The position numbers and the translations under genes were made by a program. A stretch of DNA of 32,000 bases, taken from NCBI GenBank assembly GCA_047651235.1, contig CP178758.1, positions 1,860,001 through 1,892,000 of the forward strand, given 5' to 3'. The notes under the pieces were generated by a model, which was not told the origin of the DNA, did no database searches, and saw only the letters and a list, made by a program, of their open reading frames with translations. Positions 4,901-30,668 of this stretch are shown here, in pieces; position 1 is the first letter of the stretch; each line of letters begins with the position of its first letter. The stretch comes from Candidatus Electrothrix yaqonensis (lineage in GTDB: Bacteria > Desulfobacterota > Desulfobulbia > Desulfobulbales > Desulfobulbaceae).

Positions 4901-6358
4901 TTATCGTTCACGGACAAAGCCTATTGATGAAAGCATATTCGCCCCTGCGAAACGGTCCAGGTCTTCAGGCCGTTTAACCGTGTGGTCCAGGTAGAATGCA
5001 GCAAGAGCTGCCCCGATTGCCGCGATTATACCTGCCGGAAGAGAAAGGAGCAGTCTGGCTTTGACGTTCGGAGAGGCAGGCTTGGAAGGCTCGGAGGGCC
5101 AATTGGAGACAAACACATTGGCCGCTCTGGCTTTTTCCCGCTCTTCCGTAATACGTGCTTCTTCCAGCTTCTCGGTGTATATCTGATGGTTCCGTTTATA
5201 GACATTCAGTTTGTCGAGCAGTCTGGATCGACCGATTTCTTTTTCCTTAAATACTGTAACTTCCGTTTTGATGCGGTCAAGTTCATCTGTTAATACTTTT
5301 TCTTTGTTGAGCTGAGCATGCAGATCAAGTTCCAGGCCGTTTAAAAATTGTTTTTGCGCTGTAAGAAATTCTTTTCTGAGCTGTCTGATCTGACGGATCG
5401 TATCCTTGTATTCAGGAGATGATTTCGGATACAGAGATTGGACCCGTTCTTTTTCCAGGACCATGGGAATATATACCTTGGCAAGTTCCGTCAGCATAGT
5501 GTTGCTGCGATAATCCTGGTTCATCATGGTAAGTTCCCCGTGCTTTGCCATGCTTTGTTTAAACGCATCAACCTGCTTCTGCCGTCCGGCAATATCTGTT
5601 TTCAACTGGCCTAAATCATACTCAACCTGCTGAATAAATTTAAGAAAAAAAGATTCCTGTTCATTAGGAGCAATAATAAAATACCCTTTATCATATTCCT
5701 TAAGCCGTTCTTCAAGTTCAAAGATTCTTGTTTCATAAAACTTAACCTGTTGACTGTGAAATTCCACACTGCCGGCAGTCTGATGCGCTTCAATATGCCG
5801 ATCAATGTAGCAGTCCAGAAAGGTTTTTAATATTTCAGTTATTTCGACTGGATCATCTCCCTGCTTTGTCACTTGGACCATATTGGACATACTGACGGCG
5901 GAAATATCCAGCCCGCTTCGGATGTCGTTGATAATTTTATCTTCACGTGAACCTTCAAATTCAATTCCCCATTTGACCAGCAGCCGCTTTCTTTTCCGTT
6001 CTGCATCAGGTGCCGGAGTATCCTCCTTGTCCTCAAGACGTCCCATTTTTACTGCGACGTCGCGCATTACCTCTTTGGAAGACATAAGTTTAATTTCCGT
6101 GTTCACATCTTCCTGCGAGACCGGGGCGACTGTAAAACGATCTGTCTGCATTGACAGCCGCGAGTCCACAAGCGGACGAATCAGAACAGCAGCGGAAACC
6201 TGATAAACCGGATCGGTACTCAGGGTTTTTACAGCAACAAGAATGACGACTGTCAGGAAGACGCCGACCATTACATGCAGCTTAGAAAAAAAGATAAAGA
6301 GGATGTCCCGCGGGGACACCTTCATACTGTCTGAAATTGCTTCTTTTAACCCGTCCAT
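4901..6358 (-). CDS. Polysaccharide chain-length determinant / co-polymerase (Wzz/GumC family)
   Basis: 485 aa. It has an N-terminal TM helix (HVMVGVFLTVVILVAV), a long charged coiled-coil periplasmic region and a C-terminal TM helix (LLLSLPAGIIAAIGAALAAFYL). This is the classic PCP topology. Confidence 0.75.
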   Translation of the reverse strand: MDGLKEAISDSMKVSPRDILFIFFSKLHVMVGVFLTVVILVAVKTLSTDPVYQVSAAVLIRPLVDSRLSMQTDRFTVAPVSQEDVNTEIKLMSSKEVMRDVAVKMGRLEDKEDTPAPDAERKRKRLLVKWGIEFEGSREDKIINDIRSGLDISAVSMSNMVQVTKQGDDPVEITEILKTFLDCYIDRHIEAHQTAGSVEFHSQQVKFYETRIFELEERLKEYDKGYFIIAPNEQESFFLKFIQQVEYDLGQLKTDIAGRQKQVDAFKQSMAKHGELTMMNQDYRSNTMLTELAKVYIPMVLEKERVQSLYPKSSPEYKDTIRQIRQLRKEFLTAQKQFLNGLELDLHAQLNKEKVLTDELDRIKTEVTVFKEKEIGRSRLLDKLNVYKRNHQIYTEKLEEARITEEREKARAANVFVSNWPSEPSKPASPNVKARLLLSLPAGIIAAIGAALAAFYLDHTVKRPEDLDRFAGANMLSSIGFVRER

Positions 6359-7368: not shown

Positions 7369-8943
7369 CTATCTTGCTCCTGCACCCTGCAGCACGACGA
7401 AAACTGTTTTAAACAGAATCCTGAAATCTTCCCAGAGGCTCCACTCCGCAATATACTGAAGATCCATATTCATCCATTCGTCAAATTCCACATCACTTCT
7501 GCCGCTGACCTGCCAGAGACCGGTAATGCCCGGTTTTACGCTGAAGCGGCGTCGATGCGCAGCTTCTCCGAAGCGCTCAAAATCCCTGATAGGCAGGGGC
7601 CTCGGCCCGACAATGCTCATATCGCCGATGAGCACATTGGCGAATTGAGGGATTTCATCCAGACTGGTTTTCCGCAGAATGTTGCCGATTTTTGTCACCC
7701 TCGGATCTTCAGTCATTTTAAAGGCCGCTCCATCGACCTCATTGTGCTTTTCCAGCTCTGCCTGAAGTTTTTCAGCATCCCGGATCATGGTTCTGAACTT
7801 GAATATTTTAAAGCGTCGTTTATTGAGCCCGATACGTTCCTGAACAAACAGAACAGGCCAGCCGTCCTGCAGCCAGATCAGGCCGGCCACAGTCAAAAAG
7901 ACAGGAGAAAGCATGACAAGTGCTGCCAGAGAAAAAATAATATCAACAATCCGTTTAATATCCCTGTGAAACTCTGGCTGATTCACAAAGTCGTAATCAA
8001 TCAGAAGATCATTCATATTATCCGGATGATAACGGGAATCAGCGGCTGAAGAATTGTAATCGGCAACAGTAATCTCCGAGAGATCGGGAACTCCCGCATC
8101 CTCCTGAAGATCAAAGAAATCATTGATCAGGCGGGTTCTGATTCCCTGCTCCTGGCAGCTTTTGATCAGCGTGAGAATCTTATCGTAAAAACTCCTGATC
8201 GGCAGAGTAATGAAAACTTCATCAACCCGGTTTTCAGAGATATATTTTTCAAACTCCTCTTCATCCAGGGAACAGATCATCGGAATGGGCAGGACTTCTC
8301 CTACTAGTTCTTTAAAATCACTGTGATTATCGGCATGATCAATATCCAGTATACTTCTAATATATTCTTCATCTATATCATCTGCAAATCCTATCAGAGA
8401 ATACCCTGAATTGGGCTGCATGAGTTCCTGAACAAGAGTAAGAGCCCGGACATTCTGCAGCCCCACAATCAGGGCATGATGCAGCTCTTTAGACCGGCGG
8501 TTTTTTTTTCTCCAGCGCAGCAGAGCAGCCAGCGGCATCAGACCTACGAAAGATGCTGCTAACAGGATCAGCCAGAAAAAAAAAGCAAAAAAAGAGTGCG
8601 GTTGATTGACTGAGAGAATGTCCGCCCCCAGAAGAAACAGCAATGCACCGACTGTTACAGAGCCGAATATTCTTTGTCCAAGGTCAACCCATTCCTCTTT
8701 TTCCAGAACAGCGAGCCTGTTCACTTTTGTACACAAGTTCAGGCGGTGCCAAAGGAGAAAGAGGATAAAGAATTTTCCGATTTCACATAAGGAAATCCTG
8801 ATATTAAACAGTGCGCTGATCTCCGGAAATTTGTTCCGGAGATAATATTCTCTGAGCAGGATAAAGAAAACAAGCGCTAAAATGGAATTGGTCCATACGA
8901 TAAGCCCTTCAAGCAGCGCTGTTTTGTAACTCGTTTTCTTCAT
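7369..8943 (-). CDS. Undecaprenyl-phosphate sugar phosphotransferase (WbaP/EpsB-type priming glycosyltransferase, Bac_transf domain)
   Basis: 524 aa. It has N-terminal TM helices, a central linker and a C-terminal catalytic domain with the motifs FKFRTM, DEIPQFANVLIGDMSIVGPRPL and KPGITGLWQVSGRS. Confidence 0.9.
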   Translation of the reverse strand: MKKTSYKTALLEGLIVWTNSILALVFFILLREYYLRNKFPEISALFNIRISLCEIGKFFILFLLWHRLNLCTKVNRLAVLEKEEWVDLGQRIFGSVTVGALLFLLGADILSVNQPHSFFAFFFWLILLAASFVGLMPLAALLRWRKKNRRSKELHHALIVGLQNVRALTLVQELMQPNSGYSLIGFADDIDEEYIRSILDIDHADNHSDFKELVGEVLPIPMICSLDEEEFEKYISENRVDEVFITLPIRSFYDKILTLIKSCQEQGIRTRLINDFFDLQEDAGVPDLSEITVADYNSSAADSRYHPDNMNDLLIDYDFVNQPEFHRDIKRIVDIIFSLAALVMLSPVFLTVAGLIWLQDGWPVLFVQERIGLNKRRFKIFKFRTMIRDAEKLQAELEKHNEVDGAAFKMTEDPRVTKIGNILRKTSLDEIPQFANVLIGDMSIVGPRPLPIRDFERFGEAAHRRRFSVKPGITGLWQVSGRSDVEFDEWMNMDLQYIAEWSLWEDFRILFKTVFVVLQGAGAR

Positions 8944-9025: not shown

Positions 9026-9054
9026 ATTATATATCAAGCCCCCGGAGGAGTAAA
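9026..9054 (-). promoter_or_regulatory. Candidate sigma70 promoter for the EPS operon (TTTACT-N17-TATAAT on the minus strand)
   Basis: Read by eye. The -10 TATAAT is the reverse complement of 9026-9031. The spacer is 17 nt. The -35 TTTACT is the reverse complement of 9049-9054. It lies about 80 nt upstream of the ATG at 8943. Confidence 0.4.
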
Positions 9055-9524
9055 GCCGCGCTGACAAGTAAATTTTCTGATAACGGACAGTTGTAGATAA
9101 TTGACCGGGAAGCGCGCCGAATGCCCTGACCAGATCCTGAAGATGTTTCTCTTCTGCTTGTGCTGCTGTTTTTTTTCAAGAGAACCGACAAGAAAATCCT
9201 CTGCTATCATAGCATAGTCTACACGATTGAAGTACCACTTTTTTTATAATAATTTAATTTTTTATCCTGTCCGATACTACTCCAGATAAAAGAACACGCT
9301 CTAAAAAGGGCATCAAGATTCACGGGCTGACAAGGTGATGTTTTGTAGTTCGACAAAATCCGGACATGTACTTCAATTATGTTCATTACCACTCAGTAAT
9401 CTTTCAATATCGTAATGTAAATTTTGCTTTATCCGTAGAGTATTTTTTAGCCGAACTACATAACGACATAATAACAGTGTATTTTTTTCTGATCATCGCA
9501 GCATGCCGAAGAAGAAGTACCAGC

Positions 9525-9540
9525 TGGCACATGATATGTA
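9525..9540 (+). promoter_or_regulatory. Weak sigma54 -24/-12-like element (TGGCAC-N5-ATGTA) upstream of the homocitrate-synthase-like gene
   Basis: The -24 hexamer TGGCAC (9525-9530) is perfect. The -12 element reads ATGTA instead of TTGCA, so the invariant GC is GT. It lies 66 nt before the ATG at 9606, and a NifA-family activator is encoded immediately downstream. Confidence 0.25.
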
Positions 9541-9605
9541 ATCATTATATCTATAACAGGACTTTTTTGTCGCTATGTATTTTCTGTCAAAGGACAGCAG
9601 AGCAG

Positions 9606-10730
9606 ATGGCCAGCAGGTATTCTGAAATCGAAATTATAGACTCCACCCTCAGGGAAGGAGAACAGACACCATCCGTGATCTATACGGACAAGGCTCGACA
9701 AAGTATTATTGCCGGGCTGCATCGGGTTCAGGTCAACGAAATTGAATTGGGGGTTGCTGCAGCGGTCCATACCCATCTGCCCCGGCTTGTCAAAAAGGCC
9801 CGGAGGATAACCGCCGGTTCCTGCCGTCTTGCTCTCTGGTCCCGTTGTTTGAGAGAAGATATCGCCTTTGCCGCAGGCTGCCGTCCCGATGTTCTCTCGC
9901 TCTCCGTTCCGGTGTCGGACAGCCATATTCAGAAGAGGCTACGCAAAGAAAGACCGTGGGTCAAGGAAAATCTTGCCAGCGCCATCCGTCAGGCCCTGAA
10001 ATCGGGCATCCCGTTCGTTTCTGTCGGACTGGAGGATGCCAGCCGCGCAGAACCCGATTTTCTGATTGAAATTGCGCAGACGGCGGCAAAAAATGGGGCG
10101 GGCCGGATACGCCTGGCAGATACCGTCGGCATCGGCTCTCCGGGCAGCATTGCCGGACTTGTTCTGGCTGTGAAAGAAGCCGTGCCAGGAATAAAAATCG
10201 GCGTGCATTGTCATAACGATTTCGGCATGGGCACGGCTAACTCTATTGCCGCCTTGGAGGCGGGGGCGGACTGCCTTGACGCCACAGTGCTCGGCATCGG
10301 AGAACGGGCCGGAAACTGCCGCCTTGAAGAGGTGATCGGCTTTCTTTCGTTGGTGCACGGTAATACGAGGTATCGACCTGATTTTCTCCCCGATCTTTGC
10401 CGGACCGTTGCCAAGGCGACCGGAAAAAGTATTGCTGATAATCATCCCTTGATCGGATCTGAAATTTTCACCTGTGAAAGCGGTCTGCACCAGCATGGCC
10501 TGCACATTAAGCCGGAGATGTACGAGCCCTATGCACCGGAACGGGTCGGCGGAACCAGAAGGCTCCGGTTCGGCAGTAAAACCGGGAGAAAGGCTGTCCA
10601 GCTGCAGCTGAAAAAGGCGGGCATACGGCTGGATGAAACGCAGATCGGACAGCTTGTCCACCGCATCCGTTCCGGCGGTTGCGCCCTGAATGAAGAACAG
10701 CTCCTCCGCTTTGCCGTGGAGGGCTGCTGA
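9606..10730 (+). CDS. nifV: Homocitrate synthase-like (NifV / HMGL-like, LeuA-CimA superfamily) protein
   Basis: I trimmed the start to the Met at 9606 (MASRYSEIEIIDSTLREGEQ). The upstream 80 codons of the ORF run through AT-rich intergenic sequence. Motifs: LREGEQ, HCHNDFGMGTANSIAALEAGA, TVLGIGERAGNCRLEEV. Its length of about 375 aa, with no LeuA regulatory domain, fits NifV-type enzymes. The gene symbol is tentative. Confidence 0.65.
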   Translation: MASRYSEIEIIDSTLREGEQTPSVIYTDKARQSIIAGLHRVQVNEIELGVAAAVHTHLPRLVKKARRITAGSCRLALWSRCLREDIAFAAGCRPDVLSLSVPVSDSHIQKRLRKERPWVKENLASAIRQALKSGIPFVSVGLEDASRAEPDFLIEIAQTAAKNGAGRIRLADTVGIGSPGSIAGLVLAVKEAVPGIKIGVHCHNDFGMGTANSIAALEAGADCLDATVLGIGERAGNCRLEEVIGFLSLVHGNTRYRPDFLPDLCRTVAKATGKSIADNHPLIGSEIFTCESGLHQHGLHIKPEMYEPYAPERVGGTRRLRFGSKTGRKAVQLQLKKAGIRLDETQIGQLVHRIRSGGCALNEEQLLRFAVEGC

Positions 10731-16230: not shown

Positions 16231-16887
16231 TCAGCAGTTCGGCTGGCCGTCGTTTTTATCAGAGCAGGTCTCTCTGTTCAGCTCCCTGTTCAGAATTGAT
16301 TTGACTATTGCAATCCTCCTGTTTCTTTCAGTAACATTGATTGCCGTTGAGGTTTCTGTTGAATTGAGGATATTGCTCATCATGACCGGCTGCATTCCGG
16401 CACGCAGCGGATTGTCCTTCATGCGCTCCTGCATCATCCTGCCCTGCACGACACGCGCCACAGCCGGATCAGAAGATATCTCCTGAATGGTCGTTTTAAT
16501 CTTTTCCGCCATCTTCCGATTAACAGCCGCCTGGGTTTCCGCATCAAGTACATCTGTCTGCGCTGAAACGACAAATTCGATCGGGGTCATGGCTCTGCAC
16601 TCCATGCACGTTTCGATGACTGAGGCGCTTTTTCTTGCAGCCGTGCTTTTTTTCACGGCTTCGCTGGCTGTGGCCATCATTCTCTGCTGTATTTCGCTGA
16701 ATGCGGTCTGGTCGGGAAAAACTTTCAGCACAACACTGTTTGCCTTTTTTTCCATTGTCTGTGCTGCAAGGTTCCGCGTTTCGGCATCAAATGTCTGTGC
16801 TGATGCTGAACCAGCTGAACCGGTGGAAAAAAGAATGCCTGCTGCCATCATCGCGATAAAATTTCTACCTGTTTTCATCTTGTTCAC
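16231..16887 (-). CDS. Secreted Met-rich protein with an internally duplicated domain and a CxxC motif (unknown function)
   Basis: 218 aa with a signal peptide (AAGILFSTGSAGSASA/QT). Two related segments begin FDAETRNLAAQTMEKK... and LDAETQAAVNRKMAEK.... The motifs QQRMMATA, QGRMMQERM and GMQPVMM are present. A CMEC sits between the repeats, and the C-terminal sequence is CSDKNDGQPNC. Confidence 0.6.
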   Translation of the reverse strand: MNKMKTGRNFIAMMAAGILFSTGSAGSASAQTFDAETRNLAAQTMEKKANSVVLKVFPDQTAFSEIQQRMMATASEAVKKSTAARKSASVIETCMECRAMTPIEFVVSAQTDVLDAETQAAVNRKMAEKIKTTIQEISSDPAVARVVQGRMMQERMKDNPLRAGMQPVMMSNILNSTETSTAINVTERNRRIAIVKSILNRELNRETCSDKNDGQPNC

Positions 16888-16950
16888 TCCTTTATTTCTA
16901 TTAATAAGGGTTAATCCTTGTCATTGTTTATACCTTAGTGTAACAAAGGC

Positions 16951-16972
16951 AGTATGAACGGCAGATGAAACA
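16951..16972 (-). promoter_or_regulatory. Operator copy 3 (degenerate): ATGAAC-N5-ATGAAA, phased by 11 bp, upstream of the Met-rich gene
   Basis: The plus strand reads agtATGAACggcagATGAAAcag. The minus strand reads CTGTTTCATCTGCCGTTCATACT and is preceded by GCAAAAACTTCCT, the same A-tract/TTCC context as copies 1 and 2. It lies about 65 nt upstream of the ATG at 16887, and a TATAAA follows downstream. Confidence 0.45.
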
Positions 16973-17297
16973 GAGGAAGTTTTTGCAAAAAAATAAAAAA
17001 TTTTTGTTTTTTACTCCAACCTCTTGTTTATAAAGACAAAATTAAAGTATCGACGTGCAGCTCCCTGTCCAGAACGGTACAAAAAATTGTATAACAGGGG
17101 GGGGTGGATACTTTTTACTCGGTGCTGCCGGTTAAACGGTACGCCGCTTTATCCGGCAGACCGACTGCATCAGGACGCTCAGGAAGTCAAGAAGAGGTCA
17201 GAGAATCTGCCAGACCATAGATGCAAGATGTAATCCGGAAAAGAAGAAATGAACGGAAAGGAGCCTGGTTAGACGGAACAGGGCGGGGAAAAGAAAT

Positions 17298-25483: not shown

Positions 25484-25669
25484 ATGTTCGGACTCGGAAT
25501 GCCTGAACTGATTATTATACTGGTCATTATTGTTATTATTTTCGGCGCCGGCAAACTGCCTGAAATCGGTTCCGGCATCGGCAAAGGCATTAGAAATTTC
25601 AAGGATGCCACCAAAAGTGATGATGACCCAAAAACCCTGGAAGACAACAAGAGCGGTAACGAGAGCTGA
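25484..25669 (+). CDS. tatA: Twin-arginine translocase subunit, TatA/E family
   Basis: 61 aa. [42 protein letters not shown] is the canonical TM helix, FG hinge and amphipathic helix. The SD is GAGGTGAG. Confidence 0.9.
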
Positions 25670-25737
25670 GATTTCCGTTACCGGTTCAATGCTATACGAG
25701 AGCAATGCTATAGAGAGCGTAAAGGAGAACAGCTGTT

Positions 25738-26001
25738 ATGTTTGGACTCGGAACCCCTGAACTTGTCGTTATTCTCGCCATTGCCTTTCTGCTGTTCGGC
25801 GGAAAAAAGCTGCCTGAAATCGGCTCCGGCCTCGGCAAAGCCATCAGTTCCTTTAAAAAAGGTCTGCATGATGTCGAAGATGCCGCCGGTCTCGGAGAAG
25901 TAACTGAGGTAACCAAGAGCCTCCCCGGCGTGCGTGAAGTCACAGCGGTGCAGGAAAAGATTGATAAAGCGAAAGGTATCAGCAAAGCGCTGACAAAATA
26001 A
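25738..26001 (+). CDS. Second TatA-family paralog (longer, possibly TatB-like in function)
   Basis: 87 aa. [42 protein letters not shown] is followed by a longer acidic/amphipathic tail. Confidence 0.85.
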   Translation: MFGLGTPELVVILAIAFLLFGGKKLPEIGSGLGKAISSFKKGLHDVEDAAGLGEVTEVTKSLPGVREVTAVQEKIDKAKGISKALTK

Positions 26002-26086
26002 CCGGACCCCCCGATATCGCCCGCCGCTGCTCTGGCAGCTCCTGTCCTGCAGATCGGGGTTCCGGCCCCAAAACCGAATTGCCCCG

Positions 26087-26125
26087 GTAGGGCCACAGCA
26101 CACCGTGTCCCTACGAATCCTTGTT
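26087..26125 (+). terminator. Weak terminator candidate after the tat genes
   Basis: GTAGGG/CCCTAC plus three inner pairs (one mismatch) are followed by gaatccTTGTTTT. The structure is imperfect. Confidence 0.3.
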
Positions 26126-26165
26126 TTCCAAGATTGTTTAAGGCAAACTTTTGCAGAGACTTGCT

Positions 26166-26642
26166 TCATAACGGTTTGCTCGTATAAGTAAGATCTGCTC
26201 CTATAAAATCCGTTCCTCTAACATTTGCTCCTTTAAAATTAGCCCTTCTAAGATCTGCTCCTTTAAAGTCCGCTCCCATCAGGTTCGCCCCTCTAAGGTC
26301 TGTTTTTTCAAACTTTGCTTTTCGAAAATTTGCTCCATAAAAATCCTGTCGATAAAGAATGTATTCAGACAAATCCAAAAATCCTAACAAATGCAAAGCA
26401 AACATATTTTCCGGTCCTTGCCTCTGCCCTCTCAATCGTGCAATCCATTCTCCAAAATCAATATCTGATTCCAGATTTAATCTGGAAACTTGCTCTGTAA
26501 TTTCCGCGATACTGTAGTGAATGGCAAGCAAAGCTGTTTCCGCATTTCGGGCCAACCGAAGATGCTCCTTAAAGCCTTTGCTCAAGAACTCATCAGGAAA
26601 GGGTAGCCCTTGATTGATGGTGTAACTGAGCAGCCCACGCAC
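26166..26642 (-). CDS. Pentapeptide-repeat protein (separate ORF or frameshifted C-terminal module of the NACHT protein)
   Basis: 158 aa from a GTG start at 26642. The C-terminal half is tandem A(D/N)LXX-type repeats: GANFRKAKFEKTDLRGANLMGADFKGADLRRANFKGANVRGTDFIGADL. The start overlaps the upstream stop by 1 nt (TAGTG). Confidence 0.8.
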   Translation of the reverse strand: MRGLLSYTINQGLPFPDEFLSKGFKEHLRLARNAETALLAIHYSIAEITEQVSRLNLESDIDFGEWIARLRGQRQGPENMFALHLLGFLDLSEYILYRQDFYGANFRKAKFEKTDLRGANLMGADFKGADLRRANFKGANVRGTDFIGADLTYTSKPL

Positions 26643-28702
26643 TATATACCCTGCAAGGTCAGTAACTCATCCTTCTGCATGATCAGGAATTCGTTGCTGA
26701 TGAAGCGTAGCAGGTCAAAATCCAACTCTGTAGCAGCACAAATGGTGGTCCAGTATCTCAATGCTTTCTTTTCACCCCCATCCTTTACCTTTTTTTGAAT
26801 AAGAAGGAATGTATGGACAATCCGTAGCGAGGTAAGGTATTCGCCAAAACTCTTATGGGTGAACTCAAAGGTGGGGTCAGTCGCTCCGTCTCGATGCTGC
26901 TCGCTCTGGCGGAAATAAAAGGCTGTGAGCAGGCGGGTTACGTCCGTCTCCGCCTTAGCCCTTATCTGAAACTGCTCCAGATAGCGTTCAATGCCGCCTG
27001 CTTTGCATTTCGCCTGAATGTCGGCAACGCTGGCCGTGCGTCCGTCCCCGTGCCAGACCGCCAGGGCAATTTCCTCCAGCACTTGGATAAACTGCTGTTC
27101 CGTCAAGCCGCCTGCACAGAGACTTACCCGACCTTCGTACTGACGGCAATACACCGCCCGGATCAGGTCGGCATAGATCTGATTCAGGGTGGTTTCATCA
27201 GTGAACTCGACGGTCTTTCGGTCATAGCTTAAAGCGACCAAGTAATTGAGCAGGGGCTGGGCCGTGATTTCAGCAAGGTGCTTCCGCGCCAAGTCGGCAG
27301 GCAGGCCCGCATAGTCTTTGCCCGCAGCTTTTCCGTATTGCCGCCACCACGTCTGCCGCTGATCCTCGGCCAGCAGCCCGTCCGGGTCATGGTATTTCTC
27401 CCGCTCCTCTTCCTCGACAAAATAAGGCAGCACAGAGGTGATCTGCCTGGGCTCGCGCAGCTTGGTTGCCACCGACTGGATAGCAATGGTGCGCCCGGTG
27501 ATGATGACCTGCCTTTGCTTGTGATAGCCGTTGCCTTCTTGGATACGGCGGAGCACCTCATCGACAAAAGAGTTCGCCACTTCTGAGGCCGCCTTGCCTT
27601 GCAAAGCCAGTTCATCCAGCCCGTCAAAGATAATCAGCAGGCGGTCTTTGCCTGTATTGGCATCCAGCGGATTGCCGGACAGAAACGGATTGTTACGGAT
27701 ATGGTTCTCCATTGCCGAGATCAGATTATCCGTGGCATCAAAAAGATGGAGAGGAATGTACAGGCAGGGGATGTTGGTTTCCTGAGCAATCCGGGCGGCA
27801 AAGATCTTGGCAAAGGTGGACTTGCCTGACCCCGGCCCACCGCTGATAAAGCGGACAGCGGTTTCTTTCCTGAAGTTATTTACCCAGCTGCGGAACTCGG
27901 CTTCCAGAACCACCACGATCCGTTTCACCTGATTCCGCTGCGCTTCCAGCTCCTGCCTGCGCTCATCCTCCTGCTCCTTTTCCTCATAATAGGCCCGCAG
28001 CGGCACATAGACCTTATCCACGCCAAATGCCTCGGCAAACATCCGGTCGCTGACCTGCCGTTGCAGATGCTGCGCATAGAGCAGCCAGTTTCGCATCTCT
28101 TCAGTCGCCTCGGTGAACGGGCTGTCAAAATATTGGGTCAGGGCGGCGTAATCCTGCGGGGCCTTCTTCCAGGTCTCGTGCAGGGCAAAGACAAAATAAT
28201 CCGCCAGACGGCAGGCGATCTGGACAGCATCAGCTTCTGAAGCACCGAGCCCCTGCAACCAGTCGGTCAACGGGGCTTGCAGCTCCTTGAGTAGAGGGAG
28301 TTCACCGGGGCGGTCAAAGAAATCCTGCCTGATAACCACCTCAGCCTTATCCATCGCCTCTTCAAACAGCGCAGAAAGTCCTTCCAGCTTCTCCGTTTCC
28401 GGCGGATTGCGGAACAGATCAACGTAATTCTTCACCAGCTCGACCAAGGCGGCGGACAGAGCGCGATAGATCAGCAGCCAAGCCAGTTCGCCGGGGTTCT
28501 TTCGCAGGCCCACCGCATCAAGGGTTTCTAGGGCAGCACTGGCAGCGTCGCTGAAATCCAGCATTGCCCCTTCCACCAGCATCTTACCGATACCAAGTAG
28601 CAGTTTGCGTGGTTCCGCCTTGATTGCTCTGTTCCGCAGGGCAACCGGTTGACTGATATTCAGTGTGCCAGCCTGTTCCCCTGCCGATCTCTGGTCTGCC
28701 AT
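26642..28702 (-). CDS. NACHT-type STAND NTPase with an unassigned helical N-terminal domain
   Basis: 686 aa. Walker A is ISGGPGSGKSTF (residues 288-295 by my count). Walker B is LLIIFDGLDEL. Also present: VIITGRT, QPLLNYLVAL and FEFTHKSFGEYL, which are characteristic NACHT/winged-helix strings. A strong SD (GGAAGGAGA) precedes the start. Confidence 0.85.
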   Translation of the reverse strand: MADQRSAGEQAGTLNISQPVALRNRAIKAEPRKLLLGIGKMLVEGAMLDFSDAASAALETLDAVGLRKNPGELAWLLIYRALSAALVELVKNYVDLFRNPPETEKLEGLSALFEEAMDKAEVVIRQDFFDRPGELPLLKELQAPLTDWLQGLGASEADAVQIACRLADYFVFALHETWKKAPQDYAALTQYFDSPFTEATEEMRNWLLYAQHLQRQVSDRMFAEAFGVDKVYVPLRAYYEEKEQEDERRQELEAQRNQVKRIVVVLEAEFRSWVNNFRKETAVRFISGGPGSGKSTFAKIFAARIAQETNIPCLYIPLHLFDATDNLISAMENHIRNNPFLSGNPLDANTGKDRLLIIFDGLDELALQGKAASEVANSFVDEVLRRIQEGNGYHKQRQVIITGRTIAIQSVATKLREPRQITSVLPYFVEEEEREKYHDPDGLLAEDQRQTWWRQYGKAAGKDYAGLPADLARKHLAEITAQPLLNYLVALSYDRKTVEFTDETTLNQIYADLIRAVYCRQYEGRVSLCAGGLTEQQFIQVLEEIALAVWHGDGRTASVADIQAKCKAGGIERYLEQFQIRAKAETDVTRLLTAFYFRQSEQHRDGATDPTFEFTHKSFGEYLTSLRIVHTFLLIQKKVKDGGEKKALRYWTTICAATELDFDLLRFISNEFLIMQKDELLTLQGI

Positions 28703-29024: not shown

Positions 29025-30668
29025 ATGAAGAAAAAACAATGGAACCTGACAGACCTTATCGATCTTGAATTCTTCCTTCAGCAGGATGAAGGCGAGGAGA
29101 TCGACACACTGGCTGCCCGTGACCGGGAAATATATACCAATCTGCCTGCAGCGGTGCAGACGGCTGAGCCTGTTGTGCTGCTGCGGGCCTGGCTTGCTGC
29201 CCGGCGGGGGCGCCTGAGCCGGGCGGGAGAAGGCGGTGCGCCGCCCGGCGGGATCTGGCAGGAACTGCTCTGCTTTTTTTTCGCTGCCTCCCTGCTTGCC
29301 GGGCTGTTCTCCGGGGGCGGACTGGCCTTTTCCTTTCTCACCTATTCCGGCCGGGATCCGGTCAATGTGGCTGCCTATTTTTCCGTGTTTGTCCTTCTGC
29401 AGGCCGGTCTTTTTCTCCTCCTGGCCGGTTCCGCTTTTCTCCACAAATTGCAGGGCAGCAGCGTGGCTGAATCCTCTCTGCTCTACAGGCTGCTGCGCCG
29501 TATTTTTACCGGTCTGCTGGAAAAACTCGTAACCGGGGTCAGAAAAAAGGCAACCTCCCGCATCTCGGCTGAAAAACGGCTAAAATGGTCTGCGTACAGC
29601 ACCAGCATCCGGCAGCTGCCGCAGCGGTACGGGCTGGTCTTTTTCCGCCCGTTCTTTCTGGTCACCCAGGCCTTCGGGGCCAGCTTTAATCTCGGCGTAC
29701 TGGCAGCTACCCTGTTCAAGGTCATCGGCGCGGATCTCGCCTTTGGCTGGCAGACCACCCTGCAGGTGACACCCGCCTCGGTACACAGGCTGGTACATTG
29801 GATCAGCCTGCCCTGGTCGTGGCTGCCCGATCCTTTTATTCCCTCCCTGAGCCAGATCGAGGGATCCCGGCTGGTGCTCAAGGACGGCATCTACGCCCTC
29901 TCCAACCATGACCTCACCTCCTGGTGGCCCTTTCTCTGTTTATCCGTGCTCTGCTACGGCCTGCTGCCCCGACTTGCCCTGCTGCTGATTGTGGCTGTGC
30001 AGCAGCACCGGGATCTGGCCAGGCTTGATTTCCAGCAGGGTCGGTTCCGGCAGACGGTGCACAGGATGCGCACGCCTCTGGTTTCCACTGCAGCCCGTTA
30101 TATTCAGGAACCTGCCCGTGCAGGAGGAACAGAGCCTGCAGCCTTAGCTGTCCGGCCGAAAAAAAACGAACCTGCAGGCGAAGGAGAACCGGCTCTCTCC
30201 GCCCCGGAAAAGGAAACAGGCAGGGAAACAGACAGCGGTGCGGCTCCGCCGATAACCGCCCTAATCCCGGATGAAATTCTGCCCGATATCCCACAACCGG
30301 CCCTGCAGGAGCAGGTACGCCGCCGCCTGGGCTATGACCTCTGCCGGCTGGTCCCGTTCTGGACCTTGAACCGGAATGAAGAGGAGGAACTGGCTGTTCT
30401 GCAGGCGGCAATGCAGGAACACGGCTGCGATGACCTCTTCCTGCTCCAGGAAGCCTGGCAGCCGCCCATTGAGGAGCTGTTCACCTGGCTCGGTCTGCTG
30501 CGCCGGACCGTGGGGCAGCGGCCTATCATTTTTCTGGCCCTGGTCGGCAAACCGACTCCGGAGACCATACTGACCCCGGTGCAGCTGCAGCATCTGCAGA
30601 TCTGGCAGCAAAAAACAGCCGCGCTCGGCGATCCGGGCCTGCAGCTCATTGAACTGGTGACCCTATGA
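29025..30668 (+). CDS. Polytopic membrane protein, DUF2868-like
   Basis: 547 aa. It has several Gly/Ala/Leu-rich TM helices (LLCFFFAASLLAGLFSGGGLAFSFL, YFSVFVLLQAGLFLLLAGSAFL, WWPFLCLSVLCYGLLPRLALLLIVAV), a Pro/Ala/Glu-rich linker and a soluble C-terminal domain. The family assignment is from memory of the architecture and of its pairing with DUF3482 GTPases, not from a search. Confidence 0.5.
   Translation: MKKKQWNLTDLIDLEFFLQQDEGEEIDTLAARDREIYTNLPAAVQTAEPVVLLRAWLAARRGRLSRAGEGGAPPGGIWQELLCFFFAASLLAGLFSGGGLAFSFLTYSGRDPVNVAAYFSVFVLLQAGLFLLLAGSAFLHKLQGSSVAESSLLYRLLRRIFTGLLEKLVTGVRKKATSRISAEKRLKWSAYSTSIRQLPQRYGLVFFRPFFLVTQAFGASFNLGVLAATLFKVIGADLAFGWQTTLQVTPASVHRLVHWISLPWSWLPDPFIPSLSQIEGSRLVLKDGIYALSNHDLTSWWPFLCLSVLCYGLLPRLALLLIVAVQQHRDLARLDFQQGRFRQTVHRMRTPLVSTAARYIQEPARAGGTEPAALAVRPKKNEPAGEGEPALSAPEKETGRETDSGAAPPITALIPDEILPDIPQPALQEQVRRRLGYDLCRLVPFWTLNRNEEEELAVLQAAMQEHGCDDLFLLQEAWQPPIEELFTWLGLLRRTVGQRPIIFLALVGKPTPETILTPVQLQHLQIWQQKTAALGDPGLQLIELVTL

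Follow-up and report, generated by a model that had tools for sequence, protein, structure and literature searches.

A recently frameshifted, probably inactivated NNH3-NACHT-pentapeptide gene in the cable bacterium Candidatus Electrothrix yaqonensis YB6

Introduction

Bacterial NACHT (bNACHT) proteins act as switches: a ligand is detected by a C-terminal solenoid of repeats, nucleotide exchange and oligomerisation take place in the NACHT module, and the output is passed on by an N-terminal domain (Kibby et al., 10.1101/2022.07.19.500537). The same study defines the D[GAS]hDE Walker B signature of NACHT and lists both NNH and Pp (pentapeptide repeat) in the domain key of its Figure 2. Here, we analyse a gene of this kind in Candidatus Electrothrix yaqonensis YB6, which appears in the closed genome CP178758.1 (3,738,687 bp; PMC12093952) as two adjacent open reading frames (ORFs), a NACHT ORF (ORF1) and a pentapeptide-repeat ORF (ORF2). 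The window analysed is the 32,000-nt stretch from 1,860,001 to 1,892,000 of the forward strand, and positions are counted from its first nucleotide. The pair is likely to be one gene of a known bNACHT architecture that has undergone a recent frameshift and is probably no longer active.

The YB6 gene has the same order as bNACHT proteins with NNH and pentapeptide domains, namely NNH3, a NACHT module with Walker A and D[GAS]hDE Walker B motifs, and a repeat sensor, but in YB6 a 2-nt insertion breaks the copy into two ORFs, and the C-terminal tail is gone. Animal NLRs (NLRC4, NAIP and NLRP5/7; PDB 4kxf, 8fvu, 9l4j and 9lq2) share a body of NBD, HD1, WHD and HD2-like domains followed by a solenoid sensor. 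They differ in sequence (13-14% identity) and superpose with TM-scores of only ~0.3, so that domain orientation differs, and they carry a leucine-rich-repeat sensor and a CARD, PYD or BIR N-terminus, whereas the YB6 protein has a pentapeptide beta-helix and NNH3. Stand-alone pentapeptide proteins (alr1298, NP275/NP276, HetL and Qnr/MfpA) have the PF00805 right-handed beta-helix in common with ORF2, for which it is predicted, but the N-terminal 90 residues of ORF2 are not theirs and correspond to an NLR-like helical-domain interior. Decaying defence-gene pseudogenes resemble the YB6 locus in having one small indel that breaks the frame, a further lesion, and orthologs that are independently disrupted (deletion, nonsense mutation, insertion-sequence-like insertion and C-terminal replacement); the YB6 copy differs from them in that no conserved residue is lost outside the two lesions, and residual function is possible.

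Results

The sequence-only reading that preceded this analysis had described a NACHT ORF whose stop codon shares its last base with the GTG start of a pentapeptide ORF, and the coordinates and sizes of both ORFs, the 1-nt TAGTG overlap and the GTG start were all confirmed (Table 1). ORF2 lies in frame -1 (equivalently +2) relative to ORF1 and, as had also been noted, its frame is open for 8 codons upstream of the start (VTDLAGYI), with a TGA before those. A single indel within 26643-26666 had been predicted to fuse the two ORFs, and such a lesion was located by alignment of the gene DNA with three orthologs (Rat3, GW3-4 and scaldis). All three have a 2-column gap at the exact stop/start overlap, and the remaining YB6 gaps are all multiples of 3 (6, 24, 15 and 120). 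The ancestral GGT ATA GTG CGT has become GGT ATA TAG TGC GT in YB6, the junction DNA being GGTATAGTG without the TA insertion and GGTATATAGTG with it. When the 2 nt were deleted in silico, an uninterrupted frame of 845 codons was obtained, reading ...LQGIVRGLLSYT... where the homologs have ...LQGMVRGLLSYT.... Across the junction, homologs read ...LQGM(V/I)R(G/E)LLSYTINQGLPFPD..., and YB6 reads ...LQGI* (asterisk, stop) in ORF1 and VRGLLSYTINQGLPFPD... in ORF2. In addition, the N-terminal 90 residues of ORF2 match the interior of fused homologs (…LLSYTINQGLPFPDEFLSKGFKEHLRLARNAE…). A TA duplication would be the simplest history of the junction, and the TA insertion has very probably made the two ORFs out of a single gene. 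The 1-nt ORF overlap is thus explained as a by-product of one small insertion.

The gene carries a second lesion at its 3' end, a segment that corresponds to 31 gap columns in 4/4 orthologs in the DNA alignment. Within the 32-kb window this 31-nt segment occurs only once, and no inverted repeats were found around it. About 30 nt past the ORF2 stop lies a stranded C-terminus, TILENKDS*, in frame +1 relative to ORF2, which is identical at 8/8 positions to the final residues, stop included, of the homologs P0002, P0004 and P0007, and its DNA is conserved with the orthologs. Directly beyond it, a GC-rich 3' flank (GGACACGGTGTGCTGTGGCC) is kept across YB6, Rat3, scaldis, GW3-4 and laxa despite the differing genomic context in YB6. 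This remnant and the conserved flank place the ancestral gene end at 26111, so that YB6 carries two frame-disrupting lesions. The lesions sum to 33 nt (2 + 31), which returns TILENKDS to the ORF1 frame. This return is probably a coincidence, given its chance of 1 in 3 and the stop codons that interrupt the ORF1 frame between the two lesions.

The sequence is otherwise well preserved. On either side of the break, YB6 keeps all residues that are invariant in an alignment of 36 homologs, which argues that the break is young, and since the gene is pristine outside the two lesions, its inactivation would be recent. Walker A in ORF1 is GGPGSGKST (residues 288-296), including the lysine K294 named in the sequence-only reading (codon 27821-27823), and is invariant over the 36 homologs. 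Walker B is LLIIFDGLDE, in which D360-G-L-D-E364 fits the D[GAS]hDE signature, and it is likewise invariant. The NACHT and pentapeptide domains proposed earlier were both recovered by Pfam search (PF05729 in ORF1 and PF00805 in ORF2). ORF1, or the repaired protein, thus has all the hallmarks of the NACHT clade, that is, Walker A, Walker B, a profile score above threshold, and a WHD with a helical extension; ORF2 passes the PF00805 threshold and has a predicted right-handed beta-helix. At the DNA level, the pentapeptide region of YB6 is 15-nt periodic, with 7 copies in 15-nt register that are 62-83% identical. ORF2 was also considered as a protein of the HetL or Qnr type and rejected, its NCBIfam scores falling far below the cut-offs (for HetL, 48 against 260 bits); against NCBIfam, the ORFs gave only sub-threshold pentapeptide and P-loop matches. 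Together with an N-terminus taken from an NLR-like interior, these sub-cut-off scores identify ORF2 as a gene fragment.

A homolog search with the in-silico fusion (844 aa) as query gave 1,744 matches. Most of the best 120, which were examined, are single proteins of ~840-1000 aa with NNH3, NACHT and pentapeptide parts, covering ~98% of the fusion. Such fused homologs are found in other Electrothrix and in Electronema species (60-76% identity) as well as in Nostoc, Calothrix, Symploca, Methylobacter, Methylomonas, Shewanella and Leucothrix (~40-46% identity). The family of fused proteins is enriched in filamentous/multicellular bacteria (cable bacteria, Nostoc, Calothrix, Symploca and Leucothrix), the cable-bacterial form being a bNACHT protein of ~845-910 aa. 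Intact copies are present in Rat3, scaldis, laxa and Electronema JC. The only YB6 entry among the 120 best matches is P0001, which makes a close intact paralog in YB6 unlikely.

Several cable-bacterial relatives are themselves disrupted, by lesions of other kinds (Table 1). The GW3-4 copy is annotated as two genes, as in YB6. The replaced end of the Ca. E. gigas copy would be an alternative C-terminus or else the product of a rearrangement. The transposase-like ORF of the metagenome-assembled genome S24.Bin023 resembles, as judged by eye, a zinc-finger transposase N-terminus (…CSRCG…CEQCRKPF…). This sample of broken copies is biased, since those of GW3-4 and contig L011 were picked as short; an unbiased genome scan, in a collection that does not hold YB6, gave 4 loci, of which 2 are broken. 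The differing lesions at differing positions, as read from the alignments, indicate repeated decay without a selected two-gene form.

Table 1 Features of the disrupted YB6 gene (window positions) and of disrupted relatives (positions in the respective loci).
Feature	Position	Strand	Description
ORF1 (XOF32172.1, 686 aa)	26642..28702	(-)	NNH3 + NACHT ORF ending at TAG; 5' four-fifths of the ancestral gene
NNH3 (NACHT N-terminal helical domain 3), ORF1 residues 31-227	28022..28612	(-)	PF22735, E = 3.2e-39, 135.6 bits vs cut-off 27
NACHT NTPase core, ORF1 residues 285-426	27425..27850	(-)	PF05729, 32.6 bits vs cut-off 26.7
Helical domain between WHD and repeats, repaired residues ~617-758	26427..26854	(-)	AlphaFold2 model; bisected by the frame break
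Lesion 1	26643..26646	(-)	TATA tract with 2-nt (TA) insertion; makes TAG stop and TAGTG overlap; frame shift -1/+2
ORF2 (XOF32171.1, 158 aa, GTG start)	26166..26642	(-)	3' remainder: second half of helical domain and pentapeptide beta-helix
Pentapeptide repeats, ~12 units, ORF2 residues ~92-152	26187..26369	(-)	PF00805, E = 2.7e-21, 75.2 bits vs cut-off 20.2
Lesion 2	26151..26181 (boundaries alignment-dependent, +/- ~10 nt)	(-)	Net +31 nt vs orthologs; holds ORF2 TGA (26166-26168); frame +1
Stranded ancestral C-terminus and stop	26111..26137	(-)	ACA ATC TTG GAA AAC AAG GAT TCG TAG
GC-rich 3' flank directly past the ancestral stop	26091..26110	(-)	Orthologs GGGCACGG-CGTG-CCGTGCCC, a hairpin-capable palindrome, imperfect in YB6
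Ca. Electrothrix sp. GW3-4 (closed genome CP147990.1)	L003:7680-7900		Out-of-frame 92-nt deletion near aa 570; annotated as two proteins of 572 and 212 aa
JGI contig Ga0450804_1242022 (L011)			1-nt deletion near aa 706; 734-aa and 156-aa ORFs
Ca. E. gigas AU1_5	L007:6150-6450		In-frame replacement of the pentapeptide region; the new fragment has a histidine-kinase H-box-like motif (FLHEARTPLNSIIGMTELAL)
Metagenome-assembled genome S24.Bin023	L009:5780-6586		In-frame stop (DGDPTF*FTHKSF); transposase-like ORF past ~aa 658

Discussion

The ancestral protein would have consisted, in order, of helical NNH3, a NACHT NTPase with winged helix (WHD), a helical linker domain and a C-terminal pentapeptide beta-helix. 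By analogy with described bNACHT proteins, the same switch mechanism may apply to the cable-bacterial clade, with the pentapeptide beta-helix as the presumed sensor. The TA insertion within the linker domain produced an immediate TAG and a shifted frame. A GTG that was once an in-frame valine codon now begins with the final base of this stop and would be taken up as a start. The insertion would thereby uncouple the sensor from the switch in mid-domain. The ORF1 product would be a NACHT protein without half of the linker domain and without the whole sensor, translation of ORF2 would be poor or nil, and the net +31-nt lesion near the 3' end would remove the conserved C-terminal tail. Loss of function is, we infer, the likeliest consequence.

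The alternative that survives best, although we hold it to be unlikely, is a sequencing or assembly artefact, in which the gene is intact and the TA insertion stems from Nanopore assembly or polishing. CP178758.1 was assembled with Flye from Nanopore R10.4.1 reads, and the authors changed their procedure after their usual polishing had given a poorly polished genome (PMC12093952). Broken copies are also seen in other long-read genomes of cable bacteria (GW3-4), as an artefact would predict. The final assembly, however, received one Racon and one Illumina/Pilon polishing (PMC12093952), and the TA dinucleotide was inserted where there is no homopolymer. Moreover, the Logan assembly of SRR31704081 contains a 16.8-kb contig with the locus that is identical at 8,061/8,061 compared nt, the junction TATATAGTG included. 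The 31-nt second lesion is far too large for a base-calling error, and the lesions in relatives (a 92-nt deletion and an insertion-sequence-like insertion) are real mutations.

Somewhat less probable is a functional two-polypeptide NLR, in which termination at UAG would be followed by reinitiation at the overlapping GUG, and both products, a NACHT protein without a sensor and a free protein of linker and pentapeptide parts, would reassemble non-covalently or form a new regulator pair. The 1-nt stop/start overlap, the openness of both ORFs with all family-invariant residues kept, and the annotation of both as proteins by NCBI are what such a system would show, and GW3-4 and contig L011 also have a NACHT ORF and a separately called pentapeptide ORF. 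The predicted structure speaks against it. In an AlphaFold2 model of the repaired protein (35 homologs; mean pLDDT 83.6, pTM 0.81), which carries out the structure prediction of the fusion proposed in the sequence-only reading, residue 686/687 lies in the middle of helix 677-697 at pLDDT ~95. The cut therefore falls in a confident helix within a domain, and not at a linker or domain boundary. This six-helix domain (~617-758; helices 617-642, 644-655, 662-673, 677-697, 710-735 and 748-758) joins the NACHT/WHD body to a beta-helix at ~776-840 with a strand every 5 residues (776-836), and by its position in the model it may be HD2-like. Foldseek aligns the repaired model to NLRC4 (4kxf; E = 7.8e-11, ~720 columns, probability 1.00, TM-score ~0.3), a match that would reflect domain content and not global superposition; it also aligns the model to NAIP, NLRP5 and NLRP7, and the tail to the pentapeptide proteins alr1298, NP275 and HetL.

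The translation signals point the same way. With a GTG start, ORF2 has a Shine-Dalgarno (SD) duplex of -3.9 kcal/mol, which is at background level (22% of random window positions reach -4.0 or lower), compared with -8.8 for ORF1; it was called by PGAP but not by the gene caller used on the Logan contig. With the break in mid-helix, a background SD, ORF2 missed by that caller and no recoding signals, the split does not look designed. The three known splits, at ~aa 570, 686 and 706, arise from indels of -92, +2 and -1 nt and do not share a position, fused forms are the rule, and the second frame-disrupting lesion truncates the conserved tail of ORF2. That the sensor is detached or swappable, which the sequence-only reading had proposed as an unusual architecture, is not upheld by these observations, the other splits having come about elsewhere through other lesions. 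A related alternative is that the break is tolerated, with YB6 carrying a naturally split bacterial NLR and the recurrent breaks of YB6, GW3-4 and L011 near the NACHT-sensor junction reflecting selection for uncoupling; we give it slightly less credence still.

Very improbable is an exchange of a C-terminal cassette, in which the 3' quarter, low in GC, would be a recent acquisition by recombination from a donor richer in AT, with the frame break left behind as a scar. This was the interpretation that the sequence-only reading had attached to the composition step. The step itself is real: GC is 0.568 and GC at third codon positions (GC3) 0.67 over the first 600 codons of ORF1, 0.457 and 0.55 over its last 86 codons, and 0.418 and 0.35 in ORF2. 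Of the hand counts on which it had been based, 25/60 and 19/60 G+C in the repeat ORF are correct, and the 39/60 of the NACHT core is 38/60 on recounting. In the repaired gene, GC3 falls from 0.67 in the first 560 codons to 0.24 in the pentapeptide part (0.243, the lowest-GC3 part of the gene), and this fall would be expected of a foreign cassette. Intact fused orthologs, however, have the same gradient, from 0.65 to 0.32 in Rat3 and from 0.70 to 0.41 in scaldis, and GW3-4 shows the same GC fall in sliding windows. Nor is low GC confined to this gene: mean GC of the 32-kb window is 0.516, and 300-nt stretches of <=0.40 GC occur in four other places of it, showing that low-GC islands are not peculiar to the pentapeptide region. 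Such patches lie, for instance, at 9051-9700, 5451-5950 and 16701-17150; the one at ~9050-9700 spans the gap between the divergent ORFs 7369..8943 (-) and 9366..10730 (+).

The onset of the fall gives the cassette reading some further ground. The GC drop in YB6 sets in ~150 nt sooner than that of the orthologs (window ~26750-26900), which agrees with the earlier estimate of ~26850, and the YB6 linker there is 8 codons shorter, lysine-rich and only 60-68% identical to the orthologs, which are 83-91% identical to each other. The frame break, however, lies away from this boundary, flanked on either side by well-conserved sequence (...LQG|xVRGLLSYTINQGLPFP...) that shows no similarity breakpoint, and a TA duplication suffices to explain it. 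A search with ORF2 alone for a donor gave 102 candidates with shared words and nothing above 58% identity, its sensitivity for repeats being limited; its good full-length matches are C-terminal pieces of the same cable-bacterial family, and the non-repeat part of ORF2 had no match outside that family. Given the gradient of the intact fused orthologs and the lack of a closer donor, the composition is not the mark of a YB6 cassette, and low 3' GC appears to be a trait of the whole family and not the scar of a YB6-specific acquisition. The C-terminal region is the most divergent in every pairwise comparison, with ~55-65% nucleotide identity against ~80% in the core.

Signs of recombination do exist elsewhere in the gene, as a cassette exchange would have it. 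When 26166-28702 was compared with the orthologous loci L001, L003 and L005 over alignment columns 0-700, YB6 was 89-95% identical to GW3-4 over columns 75-300 and 69% over the next block, and 93-97% identical to Rat3 over columns 300-675 and 62-72% before. Such a mosaic suggests that alleles of different Electrothrix species have recombined or undergone gene conversion.

Programmed recoding, by which a -1 ribosomal frameshift or transcriptional slippage would yield some full-length protein, would fit the -1 frame of ORF2 and the 8-codon overlap window, but it is scarcely credible for an arrangement unique to YB6 whose orthologs are single-frame, and inspection by eye found neither a slippery heptamer (X XXY YYZ) nor a homopolymer run in 26643-26666.

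Of the three origins that the sequence-only reading had left side by side, a two-gene system, a recent frameshift and a swap scar, it is the recent frameshift that agrees with the 2-nt insertion relative to three orthologs and with the fused relatives. The comparison of orthologs that it had called for found relatives overwhelmingly fused, with the composition gradient common to the intact ones. Several points nevertheless weigh against a recently frameshifted and inactivated gene. Its loss of function is our inference; termination-reinitiation at the TAG/GTG overlap is conceivable; and both halves are free of further stops and keep all invariant residues, which fits recency and continued selection equally. 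The +31-nt lesion replaces only the last ~15 residues and might be tolerable, NCBI annotates both halves as ordinary proteins and not as a pseudogene, and the deposited and Logan assemblies may not be fully independent.

The gene also sits in a different place in YB6. In four Electrothrix genomes (L001, L003, L005 and L006), it is found in a conserved context that begins with mqnD (VitK2_biosynth) and ubiE and leads on past the gene to a flavoprotein. This context is absent from the 32-kb YB6 window, in which the gene lies between a DUF2868 gene and two TatA genes. The GC-rich 3' flank is kept there, and the relocation seems to have carried the immediate 3' end of the gene along. The DUF2868 gene (29025-30668, +) is followed by a GTPase gene (MMR_HSR1 + DUF3482; L010:1-2678), and this pair is divergent from the NLR-like gene. 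Directly downstream of the broken gene and convergent with it are two tandem genes of the TatA/B/E family (25484-26001, +; 61 and 87 aa, ~54% identical over 52 residues). A 153-aa ORF (25708-26169, -), whose ATG overlaps the ORF2 stop (TTATGA), passes through the TatA genes in antisense; it is almost certainly not a real gene but could mislead gene callers.

The gene neighbours in the window (the two TatA genes, an RNA U5-methyltransferase, a cytochrome c peroxidase and DUF2868) are housekeeping genes, so that no defence-island context was seen within it. A PADLOC scan of ORF1 and ORF2 gave no meaningful match, the only one being mad8 on the P-loop (E = 0.009). Some orthologous loci adjoin toxin-antitoxin, SLFN/AlbA_2 or CRISPR RAMP genes. 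The YB6 genome paper (PMC12093952) makes no mention of pseudogenes, frameshifts, NACHT or defence systems, and no paper was found in the literature on pseudogenes in cable bacteria.

In summary, the NNH-NACHT-pentapeptide architecture is already catalogued, and the YB6 locus is a new broken member of it. The annotation calls for correction, in that GenBank lists two ordinary proteins (XOF32172.1 and XOF32171.1) where a single NLR-like gene has been disrupted, and the split and the GC step are no grounds for proposing a new immune architecture. In several cable-bacterial genomes, separate lesions of different kinds have each inactivated a copy of the NNH3-NACHT-pentapeptide gene. Repeated independent inactivation is typical of fast-turnover, possibly costly, defence genes. 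The fall in GC3 from 5' to 3', the mosaic identity blocks and the hypervariable, DNA-periodic repeats fit a rapidly diversifying sensor end.

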